Source: Torpedo marmorata (taxonomy: Eukaryota). From it: a DNA stretch of 64,000 bases. The translations under genes were made by a program, and so were the position numbers. Each line of letters starts with the position of its first letter. Within the stretch, counting starts at the first letter, position 1. The notes under the pieces are model-generated. The model was not told the DNA's origin. It searched no databases and saw only the letters and a list, made by a program, of their open reading frames with translations. Where the stretch lies: positions 75,950,001 to 76,014,000 of the forward strand of contig OZ360233.1 in NCBI GenBank assembly GCA_977017645.1, written 5' to 3'. Below, one piece after another: positions 3,185 to 48,505 of this stretch.

Positions 3185-3752
3185 GAGTAAAGCACGAAAG
3201 TCTGCTTTCGTGATCGAAGTAAAAACACAATGCTGGAGAAACTCAGCAGGTCAAACACTGTAGTTTATATAGCAAAGATAAAGAAACATAATCAATGTTT
3301 CAGGCTTGAGCCCTTCATCAAGGTATGAGCAAAATGTAGGCAGGCGTCTGAACAAAATGGTGGGGGGGAGGGGGAGGGGCAGGGGGAGGAGCACAGTCCC
3401 ACAGGCGGGAGGTAATAGGTGGATAAGGGAGGGAGGGCACACCAGCAAACGGGGGCGGAGGGGGATGGCTCTGTGAATGGAGAGGGAAGGGGTTGAAGAG
3501 CTGAAGGAAAAGAGACAGAGGGATGGGGAAGAGAGGGAGAACGGGGAATAGGCTATCAGAAACCAGAGAAGTCAATGTTAATGCCATCCGGTTGGAGAGC
3601 GCCCAGACGGAAAATTAGGTGTTGCTCCTCCAATTTATGGGTGGTCTTGGTTTGACAGTACATGAGACCATGGACAGACATGTTAGTATGGGAGTGGGGC
3701 GCAGAATTGAAATGGTTGGCCACTGGGAGATCCCTGTCACTGATGTGGACAG
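3185..3752 (-). mobile_element. Penelope-derived fragment
   Basis: DLPVANHFN...EEQHLIFRLGALQPDGINIDF plus pseudo-LTR. Confidence 0.8.
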
Positions 3753-5206
3753 AGTGATGGGCCAAATGGCCTCGTTCTGTCTTGCAACAAATATGTACTT
3801 AATTCCATACAGCAACTTGTTTAAACGCAGCAACAACATTCCATCCACCTGAGAGCAGTAAGTGCCACAGCCAGTCCCAAGCCAATGCCGGCATCACTGA
3901 AGCTGTGCTGTATTGGAAGTGCCATGCTGGGTTCTGAGCCCATTCCGGTTTGAACAATGACTTACATTCTCAGTGGTATGAATGCAGCCCAATAAGCTAC
4001 AACCACCAGCAATGTAAACTCTTGAATATAAAACACTGAATAATTTAAGGAATAAGCCCCCCCATGCTCATGCTTACAACACCGTTGAAATAGGCTGGTT
4101 GAAACAATTCTTCAAAAGCCTTTGGATCTCTTAATCATTCTCAGTTTCAAGGCAAATAGGAAGGATAATGCATTAAATATTGCACTGCAAAAGCTCTCTT
4201 CCATCGTCCTGAGCATTATTGGGCGAGAAAACATCTAGAAATCCATAAACAACCAGAAACCTCAACCATGAGGTGGTGACTAGAACCACAGTTCTTGTTC
4301 AACAATTTTCTCTGTGGGCTATCTTCAGTAGATAACCATCTCAGTTTAAGCAGAAAGAGAAATTACCAATACATAAAAGAATCATTAACAAAACCGTGAA
4401 CAACTGATCACTTTTACCTTTGTTTTATGCATTCTTTCACCCTGCCAAGAGTGAGGAGGATGGGTGATATTTTCTCCTCATCAGGCAATGGTGAAGAGTT
4501 CCAGAAATGGAATGGGAAATATTTCAATATATGTAGGCCAATCTGGGTTTTGGCTCAGTGTGATTAGAATGTAGCTTCCTCCATTCTGCACAAAGCTCTC
4601 AACACTGCCCTCTCCTGCACACATGTGGCATTTTTACTCCAATGGGGAAAAGGCTCTTGCAGTACCCAATCTCAAAGAAATGCAGTCAGTGTTATAATAT
4701 TGAACATTACAGCACAGTACAGGCCCTTCAACCTAGGTTGTGCTGACCTATGTAAACCTACTCCACAACAGTCTGATTTTTCTCTACCTCACAACTATAA
4801 CCCTCGATTTTTCTTGCATCCATGTTCCTATCGAAGAATGTCCCTATTGTACCAGCATCCATCACCACCCCCGTCAATGCATTGCAGGCACCCACCAATC
4901 TCTGTGTAAAAAGCTTACCTCTGATATCTCCCCTAAACTTTCCTCCACTCACCTTAAACAGATGTCCTCCGGTATTTGCGATTGTTACCCCAGGAAAAAG
5001 GTGCTGGCTGTCCACCCTGTCTAAGCCCCTCATAAACTAAAACAGTAAAACCCCTCCCCCCTCACTCTTTTGCACGGACGCCTGCCGACATTTTTCCCTA
5101 CCTTGGTGAACGGCTCAAGCCCGAAACGTCGGTTATGTATTTTTACCTTTGCTATGTAAAGTACACTGTTTGACCTGCTGAGTTTCTCCAGCATTGTGTG
5201 TTTTTA

Positions 5207-5433
5207 CAGTAAAAGCCCTGGTATCTGGCACCTATGGGGAATGGTAGATGCCGGATAAGGAAATTTGCTGGTTGCTTGAGATTGCATGTTACGTGATTGG
5301 CAAACTAACCACTAGGGGGCGCCAATTTTAAACTTTCATATTTTTAACCTATTTATTTTCCGCAAGTTTTTTTGCCGGTTGCTTGAGAGAATGCTTGAGG
5401 CTGCCGGTTGCTTGAATAACAGGGATTTTACTG
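5207..5433. mobile_element. Tigger/pogo-like MITE (copies also at ~12310-12524 and ~53817-54027)
   Basis: TIRs CAGTAAAA.CCC...GGGATTTTACTG with TA flanks; three similar copies in the window. Confidence 0.75.
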
Positions 5434-7750
5434 TACAATCTTATATTGCACGATAACTAAACCTGGCAGACAACCTGTGCAGAATAAGGTTCCAAAACAA
5501 AGGGATAAAGTCCTGATTGCTTTTTAAAAAAAATAAAAGTGTTGTTGTTTGAGAAGTGAATATTGACCAGGAGGTACTTTCCTCACCGTTGTTTGAAAAA
5601 TTGTCATGGGATCATTTATGACCATCTGAGACGCCAATGCTGGCATCCTCAACATTTTTCTCAGACAGCAAATGCAGTGACACTTTTTATCAGGCCACAT
5701 AGACCGAAACCTGTTCAGAACCACTGTCCCGATAAAGCCACTTTTTTTTAAAGTCACCGCTACTCTGGCTAAGTTTCTTGTTCTTATTTTTGATGTCTTA
5801 CGTTATAATAAAGGGAACGGATTTATTTTGAAACACCAAGCTTCAACATTGGACTACTGACAATGAAAGGTCAATCATAAGGCTTTAACTTTTGGCTTCC
5901 TTCTAATTCGTCACATGAATGAAATTGCTTTCTTGGCCCATTACACCACTTCACAGTGCACAAATACAACATTTTCTTATTTTTGCTAAAGTGTTCTCAA
6001 TGGTCGGGTAGGTACATCAGACCATTCCTGGGTCAGGTACAAAACATGTTATGTGCAGATTAAAGCTCTGTCTCAATAATATGACCCAATGCTCAGAACA
6101 CCATTACAAATTAGTGTGTCAGTTTTTTTTTGTCCCTTGTTAGAAATCCTTGAGATAAATTTATGTGTTTGCAGTTTTTGCATTTACCAACTGGACCCAT
6201 TTTAATTCGCACACCAGGGAAAATTCACCAAACTTACATGAGACAATATTGGATTCCAGCTTGGGCCCAAAATGTAAAAGGATAATATTCCAACAAAGTA
6301 CACCACTCAGATCACAGAAAACAGTATACAACTACACAACCCATGTCCCTGTAAGTGTAGTTTCACTGATTGATTGCATTTGAATTTTCTCCCTGTTTCA
6401 AACATTGACCAGAAAAATTAGTCCACAAATAATGAAGCTTAAGGGGTTGAACTCTGTGTGACATCAGTGACTAAAAACAAGGCTCCTTGGTGACACCAGA
6501 GAAGTTGGGATTGTTCGCTTTGGATTGGAGAACATAAAGGGGAGACTCGCGAGAGGAGTGGCAGAGATAGTGAGATTTTAAAAAAAGGTTATAAGAGCAA
6601 GAGGCATAGAATGGAGAGTAGGCTATTCAGCTGCTTTCGACAGCTCTGCCATTCAATGAAATCATAGCTGATCTTTTTCATTGGCTCTACTTTGCCACTT
6701 TGTTGCATACTCCTCGACTTCCTTAATATGCAGAAACCTATAAATCTGTGACTTGAGTATATTCAGTGGCCAAGTCCCCATAACCATCCTGCCAAGAGAA
6801 TTGCAAGATTTGCTACTCTCAGGTTAAGAATTGTTTTGTTTCAAGAAATATCAAGAACATTTCAAGAAATTTCTTAAATGTAAAAATCCTTATTCTGAAG
6901 TTGCAACCCCTAGTTCTATGCACCCAGATCAGGAAGCACGATCCCTGAATGTATTACCTCAAACCCTGGTGGGAGAATGCCTCTCAATTCTTCTCAACTC
7001 TAGAGAGTATAACGACAGCAAGCATAATCTTTCTTGAAACAATTTCTCCACCACAATCAATATGCTAAAACTCTGCAGTCCCCAAGTTATGCAAGGTTCA
7101 CTTCCTGAGAACTGTCTGCAAGCCAATTTCTCCATAAGTCAGAAACATGCTTTCTATTGTTACCCCTATCTTATCGCTCTACATGCATTTACTATAATAC
7201 TTCAATTTCAAGATTCAAGATTATTTTTTTCATTGAATAATCAGCCTAATGCTACCTGTAGTTAAACTAATGGAATATATGCATTAGCCTGTCATTAATG
7301 AAAACCATGGATCGTTTTATCATTGATATTACTGGCTTGAAAAAATGCTTTAAAAATGTATGGGAGAATTTTTGTAATGTCAGAATTCCATAAGGTCATT
7401 TATGGAATATACTGAATATACTTCCTTAGAAAGTGAGACCAGACTGTAGTTATAGTGTGGTTTGGAAACTCTGAATAATTTCACTAGTCTCTTGGCAAGT
7501 TGGCACAGTTGCAATAGATGAAAAACTTCTATTTGTGACATGATTGTGCAAAAAATAAATTGGTGCAAATAGTTGGCTTTTAAACGGGACAGAAAGAAAA
7601 AGTGAACTGAAATGGCTGAGGGATGGGACTAATTTGATAGATCTCTCAAAAGTCACTCATGCACAGGTCACCTCCTTTATCAATGTGACTGTGCTAAAAG
7701 AATGGCCAACAGAAATTTGTGTAAATCAATCCAACTCCAATGTCACAGAG

Positions 7751-13703: not shown

Positions 13704-14748
13704 CTAAAAGAAAAAATATATCAGTCATGTGGTTTGAATAATTTTTTATAGGAACATGCATTTGTGTAGAATCTTTGATGTAATAAAACATGATAGGAAC
13801 ATTTTCAAATATTTGACATGAGCAACATAATGAAATCTGAAGACCTTATTTTGGATTAATTTTATGAGTTGAAGAATGTTGGCACATGACCAAAGAATAG
13901 ACATGTTACATGTTCAGTTTAATGTATCAATCTAAAGACTGTACCCGTCTCCTCAGCACTGCAGGAGGGGAGTGTCCTCACCAGATTGATAGTCACTATC
14001 GAGCTACGCCTCCAAATGTCAGCCTTGATTATCTACATTTCAAAAACCATCTCCCGTCACCTTCTGACTCAAAAGCGAAAGTGGTCCTGTTCTTCGGGCA
14101 GATCTATATCCACACATGACAATTCAAGCCACAGATTCAAGTCTAACATACCTACCTTGAACATAGTGGTGACAACCACTGTATTACGGTAACTAGCAGA
14201 AGAATCACAGAGAAGTTGAAGGAAAAATAAAATCAGGCAGTGAACTAGAATCCATTGTCTGCCTATTTTTTTTAAAAAGGGGATTTGAATATAAACTTGC
14301 AGAATAAAAGGCTTAAGATGATGTGGATAAAGTGGGGAAATGGGATTAATTGGAAAGCTCTTTCAGTGAGCTACGATGGACACAAAGTTCCAAATATTCT
14401 TTGTCAGTGCGGTATGATTCTTTATCAGGAGATCTTATTTTACTGGGAAATCTGTGTTTGATAACTGACTGGTCTATTTCCCACCTCTGATTATACGTTT
14501 TTAGTGGCGAAAGCCATCAAGACCCTTTGGTGTTTTTAGTGCTCAGCACCTCAAACTTTCGATAAAAATTAAGAAACCATTGCTGCTTTAGAATCAGTTA
14601 TTGACCAGCGTCTGACTGGAGATAGAATTCTTCGGATAATGTCAGTTTCTACCCAAACTCTCCAGAGTATCTTGATCCATTCAAGCCTCATTGAAAAAGT
14701 AATCCAGGATGCCTTTGCAATTTATATGCCCCACCCAGCAAGCATTAG

Positions 14749-15615
14749 GCAGGGGTGGCTTAACACAAGAGCCACATACAATAAACTTCAGATGTTTGAG
14801 AGCCGCAAGACATGAAAAAATTACATACACATTTTTACTCTTACATGCACATTTTGTTACAAAAAATTTATATAAATATTAAGAAATACATGTACATAAT
14901 AATATTTATTCATGTATGTAGTTTTTAAACTGCTAATTTGTATTAGTTTCAATAATCAAAAAGTACACATAATATATATATTCTCGTCTAATAGTCGAAT
15001 TTTGTGGACCAATTTTTCAGGTAAGATTTATGGGGTCGACTATTACACACATACTCCTTTTGACCGCGGTAAGTATCTGCGTCATTAGAGGCGTCGGGAG
15101 CTCGGATGGGCAGCCGGGACCGGGTGGTAAGTCCGAGTTCAGTGCTTCAGGAGCTTGGATGGGTGGACGGACGGCCAGGCCTAGGTGAGAGTCCGCAGTC
15201 GGGGTGTCGGGAGCTCAGATGAGAGGGCGGCAGGGGCGTCAGGAGTTCGGATAGGAGAGCGGCCGGGGCACCAGGAGCTCGGATGGGAGGGCGGGCAGGG
15301 CCTAGGTGAGAGTCCGTGGTCAGGGTGTCGGGAGCTCTGGTGGGCGGGCGGCCTGGGCCTAGGCGAGAGTCCCCTTTCGGGGCGTCGGGAGGTCCGGAGG
15401 ACGGGTGGCCGGGACCTGGGCTAGAAACGGCAGTTGGGGCATCGGGAGCTTGGATGGGCGGGGGGCAGGTCGATTTTTACACGGTATCGACTATTACACG
15501 CGTATATACGAGAAACATACCAAATATCTTCAATCGCAAGCCACGCCCACTATAATTACTATTGAGACCGGCTTATACGATTCCTGTCTCAGCCAACATA
15601 TTTTCATGAGCCGCG
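14749..15615. mobile_element. Nested DNA-transposon remnants: hAT-like start plus Tc/pogo-like element (~14975-15510) with GC-rich internal repeats
   Basis: CAGGGGTGGC..GAGCCAC/GAGCCGC subterminal motifs; TCGACTATTACAC repeats and GCGTATATACG end; degenerate GTCGGGAGCTCGGATGGG tandem units. Confidence 0.5.
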
Positions 15616-16380
15616 CGTGTGTGTGTGTGTGTGTGTGTTTTTTCTATGTACGTGCAGACTAAATGCTATCAAACTTGAATGAACAACTTTAAGATCATCT
15701 TTTCCATGACTGAGTGTCCTCATCACAAAAGAAGAGTATTGCACTGGAATATTTTAAGGTGTTTCACAGGAATAGACAGACACAGCATGAAACAAGCCCG
15801 TCGGCACAACAAGTTCACACCAGCCATCAACCACCCATTTATACTAATCCTACATTAATCCATCATTTCATTCTCATCCCACATTCTCTCACTCAGCTAC
15901 GCCCCAAGGGTAATTTGCAGCTGCCAATTAATTGACCAGCCTGCACAACTTTGGAAACCGGAGCAACTAGAAGAAACCAACATGGTCACAGGGAGAACGT
16001 GCAAACTTCACGCAAACAGAAGCAGAGGTTAGAGTTGAACCAGAGTCTCTGACACTGCAAGGTAGCGGCTCCACTAGCTGCACCGCGTGTTACTAAATTA
16101 CACGACAGCACAGATGTGGCCCATTCAACCTATTGGTAAAGGCAGATACTTATGTTCTGAACAAACCTCATCACAACCTACTTCATCTCACCATGTCAGC
16201 TTATCCTCCTGTCCCTCATCAACATCCAGCTTCCTCTCAAATCCATCCATATTGTTTGCACCCAACATCATGCAGAATCTACAGAGCAATGAGTTCATCC
16301 ATCCAGAGTTAACTCACAATCCTTATTATTCTCAATGGTTTCTGAGACAACCCCTGCGATGCAGTAGTTAGTTCATTGTA

Positions 16381-19300
16381 AGACCATCAGACCATAAGAC
16401 ATAGGAGCAGAAATAGGCTATTCAGCCCATCGAGTCTGCCCTGCCACTCAATCATGAGCTGATCCATTCTCCCACAGCCCCACTGCCCAGCCTCTTCCCA
16501 TAACTATTGATGCCCTGGCTAATCAAGAACCTATCAATCTCTCCCTTAAATACACCCAATGACTTGGCCTCCATTACCGCCTGTGGCAACAATTTCCATA
16601 GATTCACCACCCTCTGGCTAAAGAAATTCTTCCGCATCTCTGTTCTAAGTGCTGTCCTTTAATCCTGAAGTTGTGCCCTCTTGTCCTAGACTCTCCGACC
16701 ATGGGAAAGAACCTTTCTACATCTACTCTGTCCATACCTTTCAACATTTGAAATATTTCAATGAGATAAGAATCAGAATTTATTGTCATGAACAAGTCAT
16801 GAAAGTCGGTGTTTTGCGGCAGCATCATAGTGCAAACATTCATATTATAACCATCTACGACATTACTATAAAATATATATATATATAATAGTGCACAAAA
16901 AGTAAGGCAGTGTCTTTGGTTCATTGATTATTCAGGAATCTGATGGCAGCGGGGAAGAAGCTGTCCTTGTGCCATTGAGTGCTCGTCTTTAGGCTCCTGT
17001 ACCTTTTTCCTGATGGTAGCAGAGTGAAGAGGGCATGGCCTGGGTGGTGGGGGTCTTTGAGGATAGAGGCTGCTTTTTTAAGACACCGTCTCGTGTAGAT
17101 GTCCTCGATGGAGTGAAGTCTGGTGCCTGTGATGTCACAGGCCGAGTTAACAACCCTCTGGAGTTTATTCTTGTCCTGAGAGTTGGCACCTCCATACCAG
17201 GCAGTGATGCAACCAGCCAGAATGCTCTCCACGGTACACCTGTAGAAGTTTACGAGAATCTTCGGTGACATACCGAATCTCCTCAGACACCTCACAAAGT
17301 ATAGACGCTGGTGAGCCTTCTTTCTGATTGCATCAACGTGGAGGCTCCAGGACAGATCCTCGGAGATGTTGACACCCAGGAATTTGAAGTTCTTGACCCT
17401 CTCCACGACTGAGCCCTCGATGAGGACTGGGTCATGTTCCCCATACTTCCTCCTGAAGTCCACAATCATCTCCTTGCTTTTGCTGACGTTGAGCGCAAGG
17501 TTGTTGTCATAACACCATTCAATGAGCTGATCTATCTCCCTCCTGTATGCTTCCTCATTGCCGTTTGTGATTCTGCCGACAACTGTGGTGTCATCAGCAA
17601 ACTTGTAGATGGCATTGGAATTGTGCCTGGCCACACAGTCATGAGTGTATAATGAGTAGAGCAGTGGGCTAAGCATGCATCCTTGGGGTGCGCCTGCGTT
17701 GATAATCAGTGAGGAGGAGACGTTGTTTCCAATTCGTACTGACTATGGTCTTCCGATGAGAAAGTCAAGGATCCAGTTGCAGAGGGGAGTATAGAGGCCT
17801 AGAGTTTGTAGCTTCTTGACCAGCACTGAGGGAATAATAGTATTGAAGGTCAAGCTGTAGTCGATGAAGAGCAGCCGTATGTATGAATTGCTGTTTTCGA
17901 GGTGATCCAGAGCTGAGTGGAGAGCCAGCGATATTGCATCTGCTGTGGAGCGATTGTGACAAAAGGCGAATTGCAGTGGGTCCAGATCTTTGCTTAGGTA
18001 CGTGTTAATTCTGGCCATGACCAGCCTCTCAAAGCATTTCATCACAGTAGAAGTTAGTGTTACTGGGCGGTAGTCGTTGAGGCAGCTCACACTACTCTTC
18101 TTAGGTACCGGGATGATTGATGCCCTTTTGAAGCAGGTGGGAACCTCTGACTGCCGCAATGAAAGGTTGAAAATGTCCGTGAACACTCCGGCTAGTTGGT
18201 TGGCGCAGATTTTCAGTACCCTGCCAGGTACGCCGTCAGGGCCTGACGCCTTGCGAGGGTTCACCCTCTTGAATGATGTTCTGATGTCACCCTCAGAGAC
18301 AGATATCACAGGGTCCTCAGCCTTTTCAGGGATTCTAGTAGGCACTGTTTGGTTCTTCTTCTCAAAGCGGGCATAGAAGGTGTTTAGCTCATCGGGTAGT
18401 GAAACAGCACAGCCGTCTATAGTGTTCGCCCTCGCTTTGTATGCTGTAATGGCCTGCACTCCCTGCCATAGCTGGCGTGTATCTGTCTCTGTCTCTAGCT
18501 TCCTCCGGAATTGCCACTTTACTTCAGAGATGGCCTTCCGCAGGTCGTGGTTGGACTTCTTGTAAAGATCCCGGTCCCCGGCCTTAAACGCCCTTGTTCT
18601 CGCCCTCAGCAGGTTGTGAATTCTCTGATTCATCCAGGGCTTCTGGTTGGAGAACACCCGGTATTTGCGCATGGGCACACACTCATCCACGCAGGTCTTG
18701 ATGAAGTCAATGACACCTGTTGCATATTCATTCAGGTCTATGGATGAGTGCTTGAATATGTTCCAGTCCACCGATTCAAAGCAGTCCTGCAGACGCTCCT
18801 CCGCCTCCCTCGACCACACTTTCGCCGTCCTCTCCACTGGTGCTGTGGTCTTCAGTCTCTGCTTGTACGCCGGGAGTAGAAGTACAGCCAGGTGATCAGA
18901 CTTGCCGAAGTGCGGTCGTGGTATGGCTCGGTATGCGTTCTTCACGGTGGTGTAGCAGTGGTCGAGTGTGTTGGTTCCCCTGGTCTCGCATGTGATGTGT
19001 TGGTGGTAGTTTGTCAGTAACTTCTTCAGGTTGGCCTGATTGAAGTCTCTCACAATGATCGGGAAGGCATCAGGATGTGCTGTCTCATGGCTATTTATCA
19101 CAGTGCTCAGTCCCTCCAGTGCCAGCCTGAAGTTAGCCTGGGGCAGAATGTACACTGCGACCAGGATGATGGCGGTGAACTCCCTCGGCAGGTAGAATGG
19201 GCAACACTTGATCGCCAGATGTTCCAGGTCGGGGGAGCAGGACAGGGACATGACCGTCACGTCTGTGCACCACGATGAATTGATGATGACACAAACGCCG

Positions 19301-20140
19301 CCTCCCCTGGTTTTTCCAGACGCCGGTGTTCAGTCAGCACGATGGAGGGTGTAGCCCTTGGGCTGCAGCTCCGTGTCCGGAATGTCCGTGTTTAGCCACG
19401 TTTCTGTAAAGCGCATCACGCAGCACTCCCTGATGACTCTCTGATGTTGAAGTCTGGCTTGGAGTTCATCAAGTTTGTTCTCCAAGGATTGTACGTTGGC
19501 CAGGAGGATGGTAGGGAGCGGAAGATGCAGGTCCCCGCATCTCAGCTTGACCTGTAGCCCCCCTCTGCATCCACGTGGTCGGGTCTTCTTTACCTGGCCC
19601 GTGGGTCCGCTGCTGGTAGTTCCCGCGGTGTTTTAATGGTCCGTGCGCTGTCCCTTTAAATCCTCCGCGATGTGTAAGTGTGTTGAGTGCCTGCTGTCTG
19701 CGACTCCCATGAAGTTTAAATGGCCCGTTCTCTGGCTGTTTAAAACTCCCGCGGTGTTGTTGTTGTACTTGCGTGAGCTGTTTAAAGGTCCCGCGGCCCG
19801 ACGGAGACTGCCGCTTCTGCCGATTCCAAGGTCTGCCAGCGATCTTAGTACATCCATGTTGTCGGGTAAGTTTGATTTTATGTTTCTCGTTTTTTGTTTG
19901 ATTTTTAGAAGTTCTGAACGGGAATATTTGATTATTCCCATCAGAGCTGCACGCAAAGAGTCGCCGATGTAAGGCCCCATCCCCCCTCATTCTCCTAAAT
20001 TCCAATGAGTGCAGGCCAAGAGCCATCAAATGTTCCTCTTATCTTAACCTTTTCATTCCCATAATCATCCTTGTGAACCTCCACTGAACCCTCTCCAACA
20101 TCAGCACATTCTTTCTTAAATGAGGAGCCTAAAACTACTC
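16381..20140 (-). mobile_element. CR1-type LINE 3' fragment interrupted by the Rex1-like LINE
   Basis: MRKNFFSQRVVNLW and ESRTRGHN motifs on the left; continuation cccccctcattctcc... on the right of the insertion. Confidence 0.75.
16768..19980 (-). mobile_element. Near full-length but disrupted Rex1/Babar-like LINE (same family as the 35-38 kb copy)
   Basis: ORF pieces 16921-17676, 17743-19260 and 19633-19980 are near-identical to the 35-38 kb element, with premature stops; TTCTGA tail; splits a CR1 fragment (16381-16767 and 19981-20140). Confidence 0.9.
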
Positions 20141-20329
20141 ATTTGTTTGGTTAGGTGCAGAAGTATTTCCATATTTCAGATCTACTTTAACCTTTCACTA
20201 ATTTCAAACTGGGTCATCTTGCAATTTTATTGGAAATACAATTCCAGATTTACCTTCTCTTGATTATATACTCATATTTCATGCAATGGATGTGACATTA
20301 AAATAAGGTGATCCGTGTCCATTTGTGTA

Positions 20330-20860
20330 GGCATAAGCCCTTTTTATGGTGCAACCCCGCAATAAAGAAGGCTCTATAAAAAAAAATAAAAAGGTGAACT
20401 TACTTTTTATGGTGACGACCTATATGACGTTTCCAGCGTTGTCTTTATGCTGAGATGCGTCGGGAGCCGGCTTCCCAATCTGAGGGAGGCAGGCGAGTGG
20501 TGCAGTAGCGCCGCCCGTCGCCGTGAAGTCGAATATACGTGCCGAGAAATGGCCGTCTTCGTTATCCAGAATCCCCCACGCAGCTGGAACCGCTCTGTCA
20601 GTGCCAGCGCCAGGGAAACGCAGAGCGGTTCCAGCTGCGTGGGGGATTATGGGTAACGAAGACGGCCATTGCCATATAGATCCACTCGATTACGTCATCG
20701 CGATGTCATCAGCCCTCCCCTTTGCAGCCGCTTTCAGCGGCATTCGTTTTATGGAGGAGGTGGAGAGATTCTCTCCACCTCTGTGTCTACCTCCTAGGCG
20801 TTTCGGAGTTCACCTTGGCAATCCTCCATCGGACTTTTTAATGAAGGTAAGTGAGGCGAC
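20330..20860. promoter_or_regulatory. CpG-rich intronic element, candidate bidirectional promoter
   Basis: Locally high CpG in apparently non-repeat sequence; YY1-like AAATGGCCG; ZNF143/Staf consensus match TTACCCATAATCCCCCACG (minus strand); CRE-like TGACGT and TTACGTCA; GTAAGT donors facing outward at 20398-20403 (-) and 20847-20852 (+). Confidence 0.55.
20548..20670. repeat. 50-bp inverted repeat (48/50 identical) with 23-bp spacer
   Basis: Arm 20548-20597 AATGGCCGTCTTCGTTATCCAGAATCCCCCACGCAGCTGGAACCGCTCTG; arm 20621-20670 is its reverse complement with two substitutions. Confidence 0.95.
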
Positions 20861-20934
20861 TTAAAGACAGAAATGTTCTGTCTTTACAGTCGCTTTCTTT
20901 GCACTATAAAAGGGGCTATAGAAAATCATGGGGT

Positions 20935-21413
20935 ATCACAAAGCTATTACAGCGCCAGCGACCCGGGTTTGAATCCTGCGCTGTCTGTAAGGAGTTTGTA
21001 CATTCTCCCCGTGTCTGCGTGGGTTTCCTCTGGATGCTCTGGTTTCCTCACACCCTCCAAAAAAAAACATACAGGATTTGTAGGTTAATTGGTGTAATTG
21101 GGCAGTACAGGCTCGTGGGCCGGATGAGTCCGTTACCATGCTGTATTTTTTTTTTAATTTAAATTTTTTAAATTTAGACATACAGCACAGTAACAGGCCC
21201 TTCCGGCCCATGAGCCCGTGCCGCCCAATTACACCCAATTAACCTACAACCCCCATACGTTTTGAAAGGTGAGAGGAAACTGGAGCACCCGGAGGAAACC
21301 CACGCAGACACGGGGAGAACGTACAAACTCCTTTCAGACTGCGCTGGATTCGAACCTGGGTCGCTGCCGCTGTAACAGCTTTGCACTAACCGCTACGCTA
21401 GCCATGCCGCCCT
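20935..21413. mobile_element. Two tRNA-headed V-domain (HE1-like) SINEs, tail to tail
   Basis: Core TGTAAGGAGTTTGTAC.TTCTCCCCGTGTCTGCGTGGGTTTCCTC in both orientations, joined at an AT-rich tail. Confidence 0.8.
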
Positions 21414-22711
21414 CTAAAAAATAATCATCTAAAGACCAGACGACCCCACACCTGTAGCCAACCAATATCCATCAAACAACATTACTAAAGTCACAGAGTA
21501 TCTGGTCATTGCTACCAACTGGCTGTCACATTTCCAATTAAAGCAAGCAAACCTTTACAGAGCTTAAATGGCTCCCAAGTTCATGAAAAGTATTATGTAA
21601 AAATGCAAGTGGTTTATTTAATTATTTGTACAGGATTACTTTAAGATGTCTCCTTTCCCAAGGGCTAGAAACTCACATTAGCTGGTTGTACACAACAAAC
21701 AGCATGTTAAGGCTTTGGAATTGTCTCATTGGTATCTCAGACACTAATATCAGATGCAGGAGGCAGCCCATGTGCTTTTGTCTCGAGCTGTATTAGGACT
21801 TTGGATGAAAAGGTAGGTGGGTGGGTTAGTAAGTTGTAAACGATACTACGATTGGTGGAGATGTGGACAGTGTAGAGGGCTATCAAAGAATAATACAGGA
21901 TAAAAATCAGTTATGGATATGGGGAAAGAAATGACAGATTGAGTTTAATCTGGACAAGTGTGAGATGTTGCCCTTTACGAGGTCAAATGGAAGGAGATTG
22001 CATCCTGTTAATGGCAGGATGCATAAAAGCATGATATGATATGCAGAGGGATCTGGGGGTCCAGGTCCATCGCTTCTTGAAAGTGGCCATGCAAGCAGAT
22101 GGGGTGGTAAAGAAAGCGTATGCTCTACACACCATCATTGGGCAGGGCATTGAGTATAAATGGAAGCCATGTTGCAATGATACAAGACTTTGGTTTGGCT
22201 GCATTTGGAGTGTTGTGTGTAATTCTGGTCGTCCCCTCCCAAGAAGGAAATGCAGGCTTTGGAAAGGATACTGAAGAATTTTGCCAGGATGTTTCCTGGA
22301 TTAGAAGGAATGAGCATTGGGGAGTGGTTGGACAAACTTGGGTTGTTTTCCCTTGTTAACCTGATAGAAGTTTATAAAATCATGAGAGGCATTGATGGGT
22401 AGACAGTCCGAAACAAAATGTCACATCCTTGAGAACATGTATTTGAAGTGTGGGGTTGGGGGAGGTTAATCAGTTGTGGAAAAAGCAGCCTGGTGGCAGG
22501 TACAATAGTAGCATTTAAGTTCTTCTAGATAGACAAATGAATGTGCAGGAAATAGAGGGATATGTATCAGGTGCAAGCAGAGATTTAGTTTAATTTGGGC
22601 ATTATGTTTGGCGCAGACCCGTGGCCACAAGGTCTGGCCCTGTGCTGTTCTGTATTTCTACCTCACATAATCTTTCTACTTCAACCTTAATTATCTTGGA
22701 ATCATGGGCTC

Positions 22712-23475
22712 CGTATAATTATCTTAAAAAAAGAACAATTGAAAATAAAATAAAAAGAAAGAAAAAAAAAGACAAAAAAAAGAAAAAAAACACTAATAAC
22801 TAATCTATTCTAACCCTTCCCTCTAAGCAAGGTTACCTTGATGTTGGAAAAAAGAAGGAAAAGAACAAAAAAAAGGTATGGATCCTGTAGCGACCTCCAA
22901 GCATTGGACAGAGAGTCCCCGGGATAGTCAGTTTTGTTAATTCTCCAATCATGATAGTATTCAATGAATGGCCCCCAGATCTTTAAAAATTGAAACTTTC
23001 TATCTTTAATATTATATCTAATTTTCTCCAAACTCAGAAAGGACATTACATCTAGTAACCACTGTCTATGTGTCGGTGATAACTCATCTTTCCATTTCAA
23101 TAAAATTGCCTGTCTGGCAATCAACGTGGAAAAAGCTAAAACCTTTTCCTGTGATGCAGACAAAGGTATGTTAAGTTCACGTGAAAAACCAAACAGAGCA
23201 ATTATAGGACATGGTTCAATATTAATCTTAAAAATCAATGATAAAATTTTTTAAATATCCTTCCAAAATCTCTCCAGATTGGGGCATTCCCAAAACATAT
23301 GTATCAGTGAAGCTTCAAAAATTTTATATCTCTCACACAACAATTTACCCAGTTTTAAAAAAATATATACATGTATGAATACCATCTGATTTTTTGAATG
23401 TTTTTCTTAATTTGTTATTCTGTATACATGTTTATTGTTGAAACTCAATAAAAATATTTTTAAAAGAAAAAGAAA
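22712..23475. mobile_element. L1-clade LINE 3' end with 5' inversion
   Basis: 22712-~23340 is ORF2 C-terminus plus part of the 3' UTR on the minus strand; ~23340-23475 is the terminal 3' UTR/AATAAA/A-tail on the plus strand; 14-bp TSD GGAATCATGGGCTC at 22698-22711 and 23476-23489. Confidence 0.85.
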
Positions 23476-23748
23476 GGAATCATGGGCTCATGCAACGTGG
23501 AAACAGGCCCTTCGGCCCACCAAATCTATGCTAACCATCAAAGTCCCATTTACACTAGTCTTACTCTGATCCCATTTTGTTATATCCACTATCAGGGATA
23601 AGTTTTTACTCTGTATAAAGTGAAGGGAGGAAAGTTTAGGGGAGACATCAAGGGTAAGTATTTTTTTTACATAGAGTGTTGTGGGTGCCTGGATCGCAAC
23701 GCCAAGGGTGGTGGTGGAGGCTGGAACATTATGGGCATTTAAGAGACC

Positions 23749-24093
23749 TGTCGCGGTCACGTACTTACCTTCATCGGGAGTGGACCCGGCCGCCGCTGAT
23801 GACGTAAGCGATGCGACACGCGGGGGTAATAGCGCACATGCACGTGTGTGTTAAGCGTCAGTATACAAGTGATGGATCTCAGACGCAGGAGGAGGAGAGT
23901 GAGAGTGTCAGGATCACCCGTGTGGCAGTGAGCCAATGAGAAGGTCAGAGGAGTTTAGCTGTTTGGGGAGTTGAAGAATGCAATGTTGTGTCTAGTGAAT
24001 AATAAAAGAAAGTCGACTTCATGATGTGCTGAAAGAAACGAGTGAGTGTATTCTTTATTTGTTTGTAAGCTGTGGTAAATCAGTGCCGTTACA
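23749..24093 (+). mobile_element. Solo LTR (TG...CA)
   Basis: TGTCGCGG...CCGTTACA ends, internal AATAAA, 4-bp TSD-like GACC/GACT; interrupts the CR1 sequence AAGAGACTCTTAGACAGG. Confidence 0.7.
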
Positions 24094-24149
24094 GACTCTT
24101 AGACAGGCCCATGGATGCAAGAAAAATAGAGGGCTCAGAAGTTGGAAGG

Positions 24150-24935
24150 TGTATTGGGAAGGGTTGTGTCTGTCATGTGACAGCACTGCCCCCCACCTAA
24201 TCGAAGGATACACCACCTGCCAATGAAGGTTTGGCCCAGCCCCACCCATTAGTGCACACCTTGCTGTTGGCCAATTTAAATTCCTTTGTACTTGGCCTTG
24301 GGCCATTGGCCTTTGTAATCAGCTTAACCTTCCTGGCACCGAGCCATTGGCCCCCTGTTAACGACCTGGGCTGGACCCCCCAGCCCTCCAGCACTATAAA
24401 GGTGCCATGTGTTCTTTGTTCTCTCTCTTTGCTAACTTGAGACCACCCTGCTTCACTCCAGGCCTAGAAACGTGGAAGGGCGCTGGAGAAATTGTTGGTA
24501 AGATGTGCGCTGTTTAAAAGGGTTGGGAGCATTTAATTAGTGTTCCTAAGTAGCACAGAGCCGTACCTGCACTGAGTCAAGGGGTGGTGGGGCATCATAT
24601 TGATTTTTACTTGATTATTGTATGTACCCAGTTGGTTATATGTGTGTGTGTACTTTGTTCCCACGCGAGTTTCAAACAATTGCTATGAAACTGTGCACGT
24701 TGCTTATTGCCGTCCCGACTTTTCCCACGATCGCTTTTAAATTGTGTGCGTTGTTCCATCACCGCTACTATTTTCCAAGGGCTACTGTAAATTGTGCATG
24801 TGTGTGTGTGTATTGCCTCTGCTGCTATTCCCCCACGTTTTGCCTTCTGTAAATAAAATTCTTTACTACCAAAGCTGTGTGTCTAGAGTCCTTGCCTTTG
24901 AGACCCACCAAACCTGTTTCCTCACTCACAATAGA
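24150..24935 (+). mobile_element. Probable second solo LTR
   Basis: TGTATTG...CAATAGA ends, CCAAT, TATAAA (~24395) and AATAAA (~24851); interrupts the same CR1 tail. Confidence 0.55.
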
Positions 24936-25701
24936 AGGGTTTAGTTTTTTTTTGGTAGGAAAAACATTGAGGGCCTGTACTGTGCTGTAATGTTCTATGT
25001 TCTATCCCATCATTTCTGCCAGATTGTACCCCTCACCTACCCCAGGAGCAATTTATAGTGACCAACTGATACATCTTTGGAATGCGGGAGGAAACACTCG
25101 TGGCCACAGGAAGATGGTGCATATTCCACAAAGTGGTCAGGATTGACCCCTGGTTGCTGGTGCAGTGTGGCAACAACTCTACTAGCAGGACCACCTTAGG
25201 AATCAGCAACCAGAGCTACTTCCCTGCACTGCTCTCAAGGCCCATTGTCTCCCATACCTGGGCAAGGACTTTCTCTGATCCATAGTCTCCTGAGCACTGG
25301 TTGCTCCCTGTATCTCCCCCTCTTCCAATCAACGACTGGGCAAACACAACCAGTGTCAAGTAAGCATGAACATTCTGCTAGGTATAGCTAGATAGACTAG
25401 GAAACCTGGAAATCCATTTGCCCTTCCTCTTCCAAAAGTACCCTTCTATCAGTTCAAATTTTTGGGAAAAGAGGCAACAAATGGGTTAACGTTGGCAAGA
25501 TTTTAACGAGAGAGGCTAAATGATCGTCCCTTGTCCACATGATCTAATCCAGAACAGGTTCCTTTGCTTTGAGTAATCCGGTCAGGGATCTCAGTGCATT
25601 GTATGTCTCAGTGGTACATCTTTCCATTCAGCTTCTGGCAGCATCATGTCTACAACTATTTACAGTTCAATCAATCAGGAGTCCCCACCTCCAATACACA
25701 C

Positions 25702-25818
25702 CTGAAATAAAGTGTTGGTTCCCGTCATCCGGGCCGGGCTGAGAGTGGCCACAGGACTGAGTGTGCTCCAGAAATGTATGCTGGAGAGCAATGGACTGGG
25801 AGTCAGCAAGAACGGGGT
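25702..25818 (-). CDS. ELK4: ELK4 third coding exon (C-domain transactivation region)
   Basis: 117 nt, too short for the ORF track. Manual translation [39 protein letters not shown]. Acceptor ttgtttcag|ACC; donor CAG|gtgtgt. Confidence 0.95.
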
Positions 25819-28213: not shown

Positions 28214-28889
28214 CAGGTATGCGCCGCTTAACATCCGTTCGGACAACGTCCGACTGCATATGTCCGTGGTCCCATAATTATTCAGTTACCGCGAGCAAGT
28301 CCGCAGCAATTTAGAAAAAGCAATCGCTAGCTATAGGAAATTATATACTGTATACCCAAACTGATCCGACTGCCCCGCTCTCTCTCCACAGCCCTGTATC
28401 AGTCCCAATTAATCCCACTGCCCCACATTCTCCCCACAGCCCTGTATCAGTCCCAACTAATCCCACTGCCCCGCTTTCTCCCCACAGCCCCGTATCGGTC
28501 CCCATACTGATCCCACTGCCTCGCTCTCTCCCCACAGCTCCGTGTCGGTCCCCACACTGATTCCACTGCCCCACTCTCTCCCCACAGCCCCGTGTCGGTC
28601 CCCACACTGATCCCACTGCCCCGCTCTCTCCCCACACTGATCCCACTGCCCCGCTCTATCCCCACAGCCCCGTGTCGGTCCCCACACTGATCCCACTGCC
28701 CCGCTCTCTCCCCACAGCCCCGTGTCGGTCCCCACACTGATCCCTACTTACAAATAAAAAGTTTATAGGTACACTACAGTATCCCATATAGCTTTGCTAA
28801 GTATATAATATGGTGTTCGCACAATGTCCACATCGCATGACACCCAATTTCACAGAACGTATCGTGGACGTTAAGCGGCGCATACCCTG
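28214..28889. mobile_element. Tc1/mariner-Tigger-like non-autonomous element carrying a minisatellite
   Basis: TIRs CAGGTATGCGCCGCTTAAC...GTTAAGCGGCGCATACCCTG followed by TA. Confidence 0.75.
28360..28745. repeat. 50-bp minisatellite, about 7-8 units
   Basis: Unit CCCACACTGATCCCACTGCCCCGCTCTCTCCCCACAGCCCCGTGTCGGTC with one shortened unit; no unique spacers. Confidence 0.9.
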
Positions 28890-29406
28890 TATTTGAATGA
28901 GGGATTGGAATGCATTGGAGGCACTATTGCTTGAAGTTTATAGCATGTGCCCCTTTAAGAAAGAACAGCAGTTTTGTTCATCCAATTTTCATTGTGATTT
29001 TTAACTCAAGTCTGCTGAATTAATAATCTAGAACCAGGGACATAGACTCAAGGGGACAGTGATTAGGGAGAAATATCCTTAGAGATCTTGGGAACTCTTT
29101 AATCTAGAAGGTTGTGGATGTTGAGTGTATCCAACTCCAAGAAAAACAATAAACATTTGAGCACCAAGGGAGTCAATGAGTGTGGCAGAGAAAACTAGCT
29201 TAATATCATTAGATATTAAGAGAATTATGGAAATATGGCATGAGATAAAAGATCGGCCAGGATCTTTTGAATAATGAAATGGACTATCAAGCTAACCATT
29301 GCTTCCATTTCTTTTTATCTTCATAAGACTATCATCAGAACAGATTCCCATAAAACATTTCAGGAAATAAATACTGCTTGGAATACGTTTTATCAGGGGA
29401 GCTGAC

Positions 29407-30246
29407 CTGGGTCAAGTAGGCTGGTGTAAGCGATGCTGCTGGCAGGGGAGGGCTTGGTAAGGCTAGTGGGCTAGGGTCGCTGCTGGTGATGACCAGTGTA
29501 GGGGTAAGTTCCAGCTCCTTGGGTTTCTTTGACCTGCCCTTCTGATGATTTGCTTCCGCGTTGTCCTGCGAGGGATCTTCCCCGTCCGAGGAGGGCTCCA
29601 GGGATTGCGGTTGGCTAGCGTCCAGCTCCTCCTTGACGTCTCCACTGGCAGGAGAGTCAAAGGAGGAAGCTAATAGTGGGGAGCCAGGGCTCAAGGGGGG
29701 TGGTGCGGAGGGCGAGATGGAGGAGATGGGCGGAGTGGTGGTGAAGGAGGTCTCCACGCAGGGCACTGACAGGGCATCTTCTGCCATCGGAGGCTTGGGC
29801 GAGGGCACTGTGAGTGCAGGAATCGGCGCAGGCTCCACCGCAGGATGTGGCGACGCTCCTTTTGGCGGGTTGGTTACGAATTTAATGACGGTCACCAGTT
29901 CCTGGCAGGGCGGCTGCTTCTTCTTCTCTTCGGAGAGCTTCTCAGCAGGGTTCTCGATTTTGATGGATTTAAAGATGTTTGGATTGGCTTGCAAAGAATT
30001 CAGGGTGAATGATGAGTAGAGGCCGGAGCGGATGTAATCGTTACGGCTGGAGATCTTGGAGGAAGATGAGGTTCCTTTCTCCTGAGTGTGGTTCTCCTTG
30101 TCCTTCTGCAGCTGACTCATTTCTGGCAAGCTGGATTCCACTCCAATTTCTGACTTGCCCACCATGTTGACATCCATCTTCAATATCTCTGGATAGCACA
30201 CAAACTTGTACACAAACTTCTGTCCATTCACCTTTTTAATAATGTT
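29407..30246 (-). CDS. ELK4: ELK4 second coding exon (ETS C-terminus, SRF-binding B-box, MAPK docking D-domain)
   Basis: 840 nt, phase 0. NIIKKVNGQKFVYKFV, B-box SSRNDYIRSGLYSSFTLNSL, IKIENPAEKL, VIKFVT, D-domain RSKKPKELEL, ends SLTPAYLTQ. Acceptor catccacag|AAC; donor CAG|gtcagc. Confidence 0.95.
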
Positions 30247-30513
30247 CTGTGGATGAAGCAGAAAATACAGAAGAAAGTCAATTCATTAATGTTTCTCAAA
30301 TAACATTTTCCCCCTGGCAAAAACATACCTTGATCAATTCAGAGTCAAACTTGTTAACTTACAAAATTATGAGGGGGAGAGACAGAGTAAATGCAACTAG
30401 GCTTTTTCTTCAGAAGTAAAACATGAAAGTCTGTAGACACCGTGGTTGAAGTCACAATGCTGGAGAAACTCAGCAGGTCAAACAGTGTCCTTTACATAGC
30501 AAAGGTAAAAATA

Positions 30514-30554
30514 CATAACCGACGTTTCGGGCTTGAGCCCTTCATCAAGGTATG
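30514..30554 (-). ncRNA. Minimal hammerhead-ribozyme motif, sense to the ELK4 pre-mRNA
   Basis: Exact reverse complement of the motif at 31055-31095. Confidence 0.6.
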
Positions 30555-31054
30555 GAAAAATGTCGGCAGGCGTCCGAACAAAAGAGTGAGGGGGGAAGGG
30601 GTAGTCGCAAAGGCAGGAGGTGATTAGGTGGAGAAGGGAGGGAGGGGATACTGGTGGATCTGTCCGCACCAGTGACAGAGACCTCCCAGTAGCCAACCAT
30701 TTCAGTTCTGTGTCACACTCCCACTCACTTGTCTGTCCATGCCCTTGTGTACTGTCCCACCAAGACCACCCGCAAATTGGAGGAACAACACCTGATTTTC
30801 CGTCTGGGCACTCTCCAGCCAGATGGCATTAACATTGACTTTTCCGGTTTCTGCCAACCTGCTCTCCTCTTCCTCCTCCCCCCTTCCCTTCCCCTTTCCA
30901 ATTCTCCTCCCTCCCTTCCCCCTCCCTTCACCTAGCCATCCCTCTTCCCCTTGATCGCTGCTGTCCCCTCCCTCCCTTCTCCACCTATCACCTCCTGCCT
31001 TTGCGACCACCCTCCCTCCCTACTCTTTTGTTCGGACGCCTGCCGACATTTTTC

Positions 31055-31095
31055 CATACCTTGATGAAGGGCTCAAGCCCGAAACGTCGGTTATG
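31055..31095 (+). ncRNA. Minimal type I hammerhead-ribozyme motif (Penelope-associated)
   Basis: CATACC-TTGATGA-A-GGGC(TCAA)GCCC-GAAA-CGTC-GGTTATG: stem I, core with C3U variant, stem II, palindromic ACGT helix III, GUC site. Confidence 0.6.
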
Positions 31096-32221
31096 TTTTT
31101 TCACCTTTGCTATATAAAGGACACTGCTTGACCTGCTGAGTTTCTCCAGCATTGTGTTTTCCCTAGGCTTTTTCTTCTGACGGTAGGTGAGATACAAACC
31201 AGAGGACATGGGTTAAGGGTGAAAGGACAAAAGTTTAGGGGGGACATTGGGGGGAACATATTCACACAGAGAGTATTGGGAGTGTGGAACAAGCTGCCAG
31301 CTGAAGTGGTGAATGTGGGCTCAATTTTAATATTTATGAAAAATTTGGACAGGTACATGGATGGGAGGGGTATGAAGGGCTATGGACTGGGTGCAGGTCA
31401 GTGGGACTAGGCAGAATAATAGTTTGGCACAGACTAGAATGGCCAAAGGGCCAGTTTTCTGTGCTGTAATGTTCTTTGGTTCTTACATGGAATCAAGTGT
31501 GACACTTAAAAAAGTGACCACAGGGATGCAAGATGTCAGAAATAAGAGTCAGAGTAAGTCACTCAGCTGATTAAGTCTCAACAGGGAATAGTTGGCAGTG
31601 ACTGTTGGGAAATAACAGAATTAGACCGGCAGGATAATATAATGTAATTAGGTATGTCAATATAATTAGAGAGGTTCATAGAGTTTGACAGAAGTTGTTC
31701 CACAAGTGAGGACAATGTAGTTTTCTTGATTTGCAATCAAATGTCTTGTCATGACCTCGTGGATAGCTAGGCAATCAAGATGGTAGGCTCCTGTGTTTTG
31801 AATAGGACGTGCACATGGGCAGTATGGACGCTGATAACATTGTGTTGAACTCTGATCGTGTATGCTGACTTCTGTAACGGTATACGTTGCCACCACTCTA
31901 AGTCAGATCAGCTCTGCATCACAAAAACTCGATGTTCCTGATGCATCAGTTAGGTCGTGCTCTGAATAAATTGCCTTGCAGTTAATGGACCAACTCCATT
32001 GCTGATTTTTGATTTGCTTCGTGTGATCTTCAATAATCTGTGTATTAAACACCAAGATCACCTTGTTTTTACATCCCTCAAACCCATGTGTGGTAAAAAT
32101 CTATCAAGCTTAGATATAAAACTATTAATTAAGTTTTCCTCTACTGCTTGTCAGGGAGAGTTCCTCACATCCACATGACAAACTTCCTTACCTGTCTGAG
32201 GAAGTAGAGGCAGTGGTGAGC

Positions 32222-33502: not shown

Positions 33503-33709
33503 CTTGTCATAATAATATCGCAGGGCACGACTCAGCTTATCGTAATTCATGTTGGGTTTGTTCTTGCGAAATCCCCAGAGTTTGGCCACATCCTCGGCCT
33601 TGAGAAGTTTGAACTCCCCATCGTTCGAGGTCCAGCGGATCAGGTGGTCATTCTTGGGCTCGAGGAGCAGCTGCAGCAAGAACTGCCACAAGGTGATGGT
33701 GTTGTCCAT
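33503..33709 (-). CDS. ELK4: ELK4/SAP-1 first coding exon (ETS domain N-terminal part)
   Basis: Translates [69 protein letters not shown] (69 codons). Acceptor ctaac...ctgttccag|ac ATG at 33711; donor AAG|gtacag at 33502. KPNMNY here and VNGQKF in the next exon fit ELK4 better than ELK1/ELK3. Confidence 0.95.
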
Positions 33710-35175: not shown

Positions 35176-38100
35176 AGAATCAGAATCAGAATCAGAATTT
35201 ATTGTCATGAACAAGTCATGAAATTCGGTGCTTTGCGGCAGCATCATAGTGCAATTAACATTCATATTAACCATTCTAACGACATTACTATATAAAAATT
35301 ATAAACAATAGTGCACTAGTGTCTTTGGTTCATTGATTGTTCAGGAATCTGATGGCAGCAGGGAAGAAGCTGACCTTGTGCCGTTGAGTGCTCGTCTTTA
35401 GGCTCCTGTACCTTTTCCCCGATGGAAGCAGCGTGAAGAGGGCATGGCCTGGGTGGTGGGGGTCCTTGAGGATAGAGGCTGCTTTATTAAGACATCGCCT
35501 CATGTAGATGTCCTCGATGGAGTGAAGTTTGGTGCCCGTGATGTCACAAGCCGAGGTAACAACCTTCTGGAGTTTGCCCTTGTCCTGGGAGTTGGCACCA
35601 CCATACCAGGCAGTGATGCAACCAGCTAGAATGCTCTCCACGGTACACCTGTAGAAGTTCACGAGAGTCTTTGGCGACATACCGAATCTCCGCAATCGCC
35701 TCACAAAGTATAGCCGCTGGCGAGCCTTCTTTGTGATTGCATCCACGTGGATGCTCCAGGACAGATCCTCGGAGATGTTGACACCCAGGAATTTGAAGTT
35801 CTTGACCCTCTCCACGACTGAGCCCTCGATGAGGACTGGGTTGTGTTCCCCTGACTTCCTCCTGAAGTCCACAATCATCTCCTTGGTTTTACTGACGTTG
35901 AGCTCGAGGTTGTTGTCATTACACCATTCAATGAGCTGATCTATCTCCCTCCTGTACGCTTCCTCATTGCCGTTTGTGATTCTGCCGACAACTGTGGTGT
36001 CATCGGCAAACTTGTATATGGCATTGGAATTGTGCCTGGCCACACAGTCATGAGTGTATAGCGAGTAGAGCAGTGGACTAAGCACGCATCCTTGGGGTGC
36101 GCCTGTGTTGATAATCAGTGAGGAGGAGACGTTGTTTCCAATTCGTACTGACTGTGGTCTTCCGATGAGAAAGTCAAGGATCCAGTTGCAGAGTGGGGTA
36201 CAGAGGCCTAGAGTTTGTAGCTTCTTGACCAGCACTGAGGGAATAATGGTATTGAAGACCGAGCTGTAGTCTATGAAGAGCAGCCGTATGTATGAATTGC
36301 TGTTTTCGAGGTGATCCAGAGCTGAATGGAGAGCCAGCGATATTGCATCTGCTGTGGAGCGATTGTGACGATAGGCGAATTGCAGTGGGTCCAGATCTTT
36401 GCTTAGGTATGTGTTAATTCTGGCCATGACCAGCCTCTCAAAACATTTCATCACCGTAGAAGTTAGTGCTACTGGGCGATAGTCGTTGAGGCAGCTCACA
36501 CTACTCTTCTTGGGCACCGGGATGATTGATGCCCTTTTGAAGCAGGTGGGAACCTCTGACTGCCGCAATGAGAGGTTGAAAATGTCCGTGAACACTCCGG
36601 CTAGTTGGTTGGCGCAGATTTTCAATACCCTGCCAGGTACGCCGTCAGGGCCTGACGCCTTGCGAGGGTTCACCCTCTTGAATGATGTTCTGACGTCGCC
36701 CTCAGAGACAGATATCACAGGGTCCTCTGCCCTCTCAGGGATTCTATTAGGCACCGTTTTGTTCTTCTTCTCAAAGCGGGCATAGAAGGTGTTCAGCTCA
36801 TCGGGTAGTGAAGCATCACAGCCGTCTATAGTGTTCACCCTCGTTTTGTAGGCTGTAATGGCCTGCACTCCCTGCCATAGCTGGCGTGTATCTGTCTCTG
36901 TCTCTAGCTTCCTTCGGAATTGCCACTTTCCTTCAGAGATGGCCTTCCGCAGGTCGTGCCTGGACTTTTTGTAAAGATCCCGGTCCCCGTCTTTAAACGC
37001 CCTTGTTCTCGTCCTCAGCAAGTTGCGAATTCTTTGATTCATCCAGGGCTTCTGGTTGGGGAACACCCGGTATTTGCGCGTGGGCACACACTCATCCACG
37101 CAGGTCTTGATGAAGTCGGTGACACCTGTTGCATATTCATTTATGTCTATGGCTGAGTGCTTGAATATGTTCCAGTCCACCGAGTCAAAGCAGTCCTGCA
37201 GACGCTCCTCCGCCTCCCTTGACCACACTTTCGCTGTCCTCTCCACTGTTGCTGTGGACTTTAGTCTCTGCTTGTACGCCGGGAGTAGAAGTACAGCCAG
37301 GTGATCAGACTTGCCGAAGTGCGGTCGTGGTATGGCTCGGTATGCGTTCTTCACGGTGGTGTAGCAGTGGTCGAGTGTGTTGGTTCCCCTGGTCTCGCAA
37401 GTGATGTGTTGGTGGTAGTTTGTCAGTGACTTCTTCAGGTTGGCCTGATTGAAGTCTCCCACAATGATCGGGAAGGCATCAGGATGTGCAGTCTCATGGC
37501 TGTTTATCACAGTGCTCAGTCCCTCCAGTGCCAGCCTGACGTTAGCCTGGGGCGGAATGTACACTGCGACCAGGATGATGGCGGTGAACTCCCTCGGCAG
37601 ATAGAATGGGCGACACTTGATCGCCAGATGTTCTAGGTCGGGGGAGCAGGACTGGGACATGACCGTCACGTCTGTGCACCACGATGAATTGATGATGACA
37701 CACACGCCGCCTCCCCTGGTTTTTCCAGACGCCGGTGTTCGGTCAGCGCGGTGGAGGGTGTAGCCCTTGGGCTGTAGCGCCGTGTCCGGAATGTCCTTGT
37801 TTAGCCATGTTTCTGTGAAGCACATCACGCAGCACTCCCTGATGACTCCCTGATATTGAATTCTGGCTTGGAGTTCATCAAATTTGTTCTCCAAGGATTG
37901 AACGTTGGCCAGGAGGATGGTAGGGAGCAGAATAAAATGGCGCCTTGCACCGGCGACTCTTTGCGTGCAGCTCTGACGGGAATAATCAAGTATTCCTGTT
38001 CAGAACTCCTAAAAATCAGAACGAAGACAAAAGCATACTTACCCTACAACGGGGATGTCCAAAGATCGCTGGAAGAACTAGGAATCGGAACCGGGGGACC

Positions 38101-48370: not shown

Positions 48371-48505
48371 TTTTAGCACAAGTACAGGTTTTTTTCTTCT
48401 TATTGTACTGCTTTGGACGTCCATTGCAAAGGGAAGTGCCATAGCGATGAATGATTATTCAAAAACCAATCGGGTCATTAAAACTAACCAAATCTCAACC
48501 TGTAT

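Follow-up and report, generated by a model that had tools for sequence, protein, structure and literature searches.

Non-autonomous DNA transposons are classed by their termini, their terminal inverted repeats (TIRs) and their target-site duplications (TSDs), the Repbase rule being agreement over the terminal 11 bases with at most one mismatch (PMC4455052; like the papers cited below, represented here by excerpts). In PIF/Harbinger (PHIS) elements, TIRs are mostly shorter than 60 bp and start with A or G, and TSDs are 3 bp long (PMC4482050); among Harbinger relatives TSDs vary, being 0, 2 or 3 bp (PMC12730594). Tourist MITEs are mobilised by Harbinger (PMC2836001), whose Myb-like protein has a subterminal motif as binding site (PMC9710019), and in one shark genome Tourist/Harbinger is the most common type of DNA transposon (PMC12498223). 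Two MITEs of Xenopus tropicalis, Harbinger-N12A_XT and Kolobok-N2_XT (342 and 496 bp), have TIRs together with palindromic internal repeats (PMC12676858).

The window analysed here, a stretch of 64,000 nt from Torpedo marmorata, contains a 582-bp element that we think likely, judging by its sequence, to be a small non-autonomous cut-and-paste DNA transposon (MITE-type) inserted in the last intron of ELK4. It shares with PIF/Harbinger Tourist-like MITEs short TIRs with a purine start, a 3-bp flank, a length of a few hundred base pairs, the lack of a transposase and a repeated subterminal motif (PMC4482050, PMC2836001, PMC9710019), but differs from them in its flank, which is ATA and not TWA. 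For its promoter-like core and outward-facing donors we found no counterpart in the excerpts of the PIF/Harbinger MITE literature considered. Like Harbinger-N12A_XT and Kolobok-N2_XT, it has no coding capacity and carries transcription factor sites, which in our element are predicted ones (PMC12676858). Compared by eye, the excerpted Harbinger-N12A_XT consensus follows the same plan of subterminal hairpins and central inverted arms; terminal sequence, however, is not shared with the Xenopus MITEs beyond a loosely similar start (by eye, unaligned), and the terminal bases gave no match to Harbinger-N12A_XT (PMC12676858 supplements, 12/13). No GTAAGT was seen in the Harbinger-N12A_XT consensus, and of six matches in the file the two displayed were both in a hAT element. 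The Kolobok target is TTAA, which is absent at our element.

MLT1J has set a precedent for the spread of ZNF143 sites by a transposable element, dispersing bound sites with fixed neighbours (PMC3627581, PMC3431495). MLT1J belongs to the LTR retroelements and its sites are of the SBS2 type, whereas our element is of the TIR type and has a palindromic SBS1-like pair without the ACTACA extension. With ZNF143-bound bidirectional CpG-island promoters the element shares a predicted ZNF143-type site, a CpG-rich core and a divergent donor layout; unlike them it lies inside TIRs, is intronic and has no flanking gene pair.

Host intron, ends and class of the element

The window holds a minus-strand gene of the ELK family. 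Its ETS exon lies near 33503-33709, and the ORF at 29335-30282 (minus) contains a large exon; the penultimate exon measures 117 nt and the last one begins at 13703 (minus). ELK4 is a cofactor of SRF. Comparison of the ETS exon with the PDB gave ELK4 as the top match (E 4.8e-35), followed by ELK1 (3.7e-31), and leaves room for ELK3, since none of the 55 matches is an ELK3 chain. The placement in the last intron of this gene, made by the sequence-only reading that preceded this work, was borne out. We take the intron to consist mostly of LINE and SINE sequence. The features are as follows (window coordinates):

13704-25701, minus strand: last intron of the ELK4-like host gene, which separates the exon at 25702-25818 from the last exon, starting at 13703
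20333-20335, plus strand: left copy of the candidate 3-bp target-site duplication, ATA
20336-20917, no strand: whole element, candidate non-autonomous DNA transposon (MITE-type), 582 bp
20336-20354, plus strand: left TIR, 19 bp, starting with AG, 17/19 against the right TIR
20339-20410, no strand: left subterminal region, with short inverted repeats (20339-47/20386-94 and 20386-93/20403-10) and copies of the TIR core motif
20398-20403, minus strand: consensus donor AAA GTAAGT, sense to ELK4, outward-facing, 68 nt inside the left end
20404-20479, minus strand: possible cryptic exon of 76 nt, picked out post hoc, with a pyrimidine-rich AG before 20479 and the donor at 20403; or else a stretch of a non-coding first exon
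20425-20430, plus strand: CRE-like half-site TGACGT
20548-20597, plus strand: left arm of the central inverted repeat, 50 nt
20562-20580, plus strand: Staf/ZNF143-type site, one mismatch to the consensus of the sequence-only reading
20598-20620, no strand: spacer of the palindrome, 23 nt
20621-20670, minus strand: right arm of the central inverted repeat, 48/50 (96%) against the left arm
20638-20656, minus strand: Staf/ZNF143-type site, no mismatches to the same consensus
20692-20697, minus strand: CRE-like half-site TGACGT
20757-20781, no strand: internal hairpin with perfect 12-bp arms
20807-20816, no strand: inverted partner (10 bp) of 20391-20400, a trace of symmetry between the element halves
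20847-20852, plus strand: consensus donor AAG GTAAGT, antisense to ELK4, outward-facing, 71 nt inside the right end
20856-20893, no strand: right subterminal hairpin
20899-20917, minus strand: right TIR, 19 bp
20918-20920, plus strand: right copy of the candidate target-site duplication, ATA

The stretch had been drawn as 20330-20860, an extent that stops short of the element's right end at 20917 and had overlooked the TIRs, the hairpins and the repeats of the TIR core. We spotted the TIR pair, which is short, by eye before submitting it to a shuffle test, in which any 19-bp pair at 17/19 arose in 1/500 dinucleotide shuffles of 20100-20938 and a pair with an identical 3-bp direct flank in none of the 500. 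This test overstates the rarity of the TIRs, because the real window is rich in 17/19 inverted pairs (43 centres, mostly repeat-derived and a few isolated); at two of these centres the 3-bp flanks of the outermost 19-mer are identical. The 3-bp flank match alone is weak evidence in AT-rich DNA. A target duplication of 2 or 4 bp, or ends moved by 1-2 bases, required extra changes when tried by eye and was set aside. The left flank has no paralogue in the window and gave no empty site.

Five copies of the TIR core motif are present in the element where 0.19 would be expected; three are left once the TIRs are removed, a number reached in none of 2000 shuffles. The predicted fold pairs both ends of the element in the centroid and the MFE structure (z -15.75, 0/100 shuffles), the z score coming mainly from the central palindrome.

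CpG content marks the left end: o/e rises from 0.09 over the 356 bp of left flank to 1.0 within the element (1.1 in the core), which stands at the top of the window's CpG segments. The right flank shows no such step because a SINE pair abuts the element there. This pair lies tail to tail at 20939-21383, 21 bp from the element's right end, and forms an imperfect palindrome of 445 bp with outer arms of 124 nt at 88%; another palindrome of SINE tails, at 43516-43692, resembles it and has terminal repeats of its own. The description of the CpG island as isolated did not hold, the window having 32 merged segments with GC of at least 50% and CpG o/e of at least 0.6 over 200 bp, among them the neighbours 18341-19890 and 20931-21490.

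We favour a transposon origin on the basis of the TIRs with their direct flank, the TIR-core repeats, the CpG step on the left and the position of the two donors, which are symmetric about the element (centre 20626.5) and not about the palindrome (centre 20609). As to class, the anatomy is most like that of PIF/Harbinger: the TIRs, at 19 bp, are below 60 bp and start with AG, and the candidate TSD has the fitting length of 3 bp. A length of 582 bp with neither a transposase nor a credible protein homologue is that of a MITE. We did not assign the element to PIF/Harbinger, since ATA/TAT matches no listed target exactly (TWA; ANT, CWG and TNA in sister groups; AT, none), and for a specifically Harbinger-like identity the chances appear evenly balanced. 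The start motifs of the TIRs were not found as text in the supplements of the PHIS paper (PMC4482050), where TIR logos are given as figures only.

On the transposon reading, the transposase of a related autonomous element, most likely one from the PHIS group, would have recognised the ends and mobilised the 582-bp unit, with three target bases duplicated upon insertion. The TIR-core repeats may be binding sites for the element's proteins, by analogy with the subterminal motif of the Harbinger3_DR Myb-like protein, and the promoter motifs, the CpG content and the donors would be cargo from the parent element and not have been made at the ELK4 locus. There, the element is probably no more than a passenger, with weak activity or none. 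There is a good probability that we are dealing with an uncatalogued or unidentified non-autonomous TIR element of a known kind. A lone intronic MITE is ordinary, and recognising one here corrects the reading of a new promoter born by local duplication.

Promoter motifs, splice donors and activity

The sequence-only reading centred on a 50-bp inverted repeat with 48/50 identity, and both arms were confirmed, with mismatches at 20565 and 20569. It had also called one Staf/ZNF143-like site per arm; the right one is exact and the left one has a single mismatch. These are the only two matches to the Staf consensus in 64 kb (0.17 expected; 1/100 window shuffles reached two), and 2000 shuffles of the element gave no exact match. 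The palindrome has doubled a single site, and the two are not independent events. The consensus rests on the wording of that earlier reading, its string not having been found in a literature search. Of the YY1-like sites claimed, AATGGCCG is indeed present in both arms, but the YY1 call is weak, and two YY1 patterns had no match in the element. The flanking CRE-like sites stood as half-sites on both sides (at least two in 23/2000 shuffles of the element), while the full palindrome occurs nowhere in the window.

Consensus donors facing outward on both sides, likewise reported before, are both present, and such an outward pair arose in 2/2000 shuffles; the window as a whole contains GTAAGT 27 times. 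The donors, which lie about 150-180 nt outside the palindrome arms, do not form an inverted pair with each other. Upstream of the minus donor, the minus strand from 20404 to 20620 is free of ATG, as a 5' UTR might be (an ATG-free segment arose in 62/2000 shuffles), and the in-phase frame of this donor meets a stop just before the junction. With no ATG and an in-phase stop, no reading frame could be carried into the last ELK4 exon by a sense RNA spliced to it from this donor. The promoter motifs and the donors are too good for chance, and transposition itself does not account for them.

Bidirectional promoter activity is possible because the promoter-like anatomy, that is, the ZNF143-type site, the CpG-rich core and the outward donors, is statistically real. 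One alternative has its origin in common with our preferred explanation but differs in function: the element would be a transposon active in the regulatory sense, in which ZNF143 bound at the palindrome would hold the core open and give rise to divergent RNAs that are spliced via the donors at ~70 nt into the host, reaching the last ELK4 exon on one side and giving an antisense RNA on the other. We consider this unlikely. The four shuffle results above (exact Staf site, outward donors, CRE half-sites and ATG-free segment) speak for it, as does the enrichment of ZNF143 at bidirectional promoters, where it binds ~70 bp upstream of start sites (PMC3627581). All four CpGs of each arm are intact; however, the absence of decay in 0/4 pairs is indistinguishable from the local rate (32/121 between two LINE copies, 4/9 in the SINE pair), a comparison that is underpowered as a proxy for methylation. 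Some Xenopus MITE copies are in open chromatin, but in the excerpt these are few, for example 21/3,521 for Harbinger-N12A_XT (PMC12676858), and the intron has two further TE-like CpG patches with GTAAGT donors. As read from the sequence, real promoter activity of the element at the ELK4 locus seems doubtful.

Were a two-way promoter family nevertheless real, new first exons and antisense RNAs could arise through it, and it might modify ELK4. A more specific idea, which we regard as distinctly improbable, is a mobile, orientation-independent promoter trap, that is, a MITE family in which the divergent promoter at the centre of a PHIS-type parent with two genes has been kept, with palindromic ZNF143 sites, two first exons and two outward donors, each ~70 nt from a TIR. 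If this were true, any landing site in either direction could start a spliced transcript into the adjoining host sequence. A multi-copy family with paired ZNF143 sites and outward donors kept would make a DNA transposon a two-way promoter with ready splice sites, and stronger conservation of the ZNF143 sites and donors than of the remaining sequence across copies would point to a genome-wide seeder of first exons and antisense RNAs in a cartilaginous fish. In a narrow literature search, we found neither a description of a mobile promoter-plus-donor MITE nor a head-to-head gene layout in Harbinger, and the divergent-gene step is one that we infer.

Other origins and roles

That the stretch is another kind of repeat or an artefact is very unlikely in our view. 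A different TIR superfamily, a solo-LTR-like piece, a microRNA hairpin and an assembly fold-back were weighed under this heading. The mismatch of the target duplication to every PHIS consensus speaks for such a reading, and the central hairpin does give sub-threshold matches to microRNA models. Rfam, however, yielded 15 matches to the element of which none reached the gathering threshold, and the central hairpin scores equally on both strands, as would any palindrome. In contrast to a perfect fold-back, the arms differ at two positions and are separated by a spacer of 23 nt. Against a solo LTR, the element has no TG...CA ends and is unrelated to an LTR-like piece at 23748-24096 in the same window; kinship between the two, prompted by a common 12-mer, was rejected at an alignment score of 30 against a shuffle maximum of 38.

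A role in splicing has little to recommend it. Read in sense to ELK4, the element would offer an acceptor and a donor, and a frame-shifting exon of 76 nt (or ~500 nt) with an early stop would lower ELK4 output. The AG before 20479 is preceded by 15/18 pyrimidines, a value that 7/743 AGs of the intron attain and that exceeds the 14 found for the two real acceptors inspected, and the candidate exon meets a stop after 19 codons. The choice of this site was nevertheless post hoc, and one such site among the few dozen AGs of the element is fairly likely (estimate ~0.25).

Hardly more credible is the origin proposed by the sequence-only reading, a locus-specific inverted duplication of host DNA that created a symmetric promoter without involvement of a repeat, the TIRs being coincidental: a single copy in the window, arms of 96% identity and real promoter motifs are all in keeping with it, but the cassette lies between TIRs with a 3-bp direct flank and contains TIR-core repeats and several independent hairpins, the donors are symmetric about the termini, and a 50-bp event cannot yield donors that far outside the arms that are not inverted partners.

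Copies, coding content and neighbouring repeats

Returning to the transposon reading, the earlier remark that no repeat in the window explains the stretch agrees with our searches for copies: BLASTN (word size 7) found no second copy in the 64 kb, and a scan for the TIR at up to four mismatches returned only the two TIRs. This lack is uninformative, because five of the eight intervals tested, among them the element, two other TIR-bounded elements and the LTR-like insert, likewise have no second match in the window. Outside it, the 22-mer of the arm had no match in prokaryotic genomes, where the 19-mer TIR pattern gave five matches, all lacking a second TIR and any further similarity, which we took as chance; plasmids and phages gave no match to the element.

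The longest ORF of the element, 126 aa, was rejected as a coding remnant, its length being at chance level (reached by 7.75% of 2000 shuffles). Protein searches were negative for this ORF (0/21 candidates), for an 89-aa minus-strand ORF (0/1) and for the right half of the element among longer proteins (0/8). The sole match of a HMMER scan (E 3.4e-5, 35% identity) was to a tandemly repetitive 517-aa sequence and was judged uninformative.

Several other repeats of the window were recorded. The insert at 23748-24096 (~350 bp, single copy in the window) interrupts a LINE fragment, has TG...CA ends, near-identical 4-bp flanks, a poly(A) signal and a CpG o/e of 1.05, carries a strong donor at 23768 in sense to ELK4, and looks like a solo LTR. 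At 14981-15600, in the same intron as the element, a CpG-rich patch (o/e 0.96) with tandem units of 32 and 57 bp and plus-strand GTAAGT donors at 15069 and 15127 is probably another non-autonomous DNA element. TIRs of ~20 bp surround a 50/80/130-bp tandem array at 28214-28888, which is single-copy in the window, as is a palindromic TIR element at 53083-53442; a further palindromic TIR element at 5202-5438 has relatives near 12307 and at 53812-54029.

Two long minus-strand LINE copies (16921-19980 and 35330-38540) are 94.6% identical over 2.5 kb, and their family is young, since the second copy keeps an open frame of 889 aa. Similar CR1-like LINE copies lie in opposite orientations at 39976-41404 and 48582-51200, with mirror-image GC skew. 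Most long inverted repeats in the window are inverted pairs of one repeat family, located at 952-3338, 30448-31161, 47688-48372 and 63087-63275.
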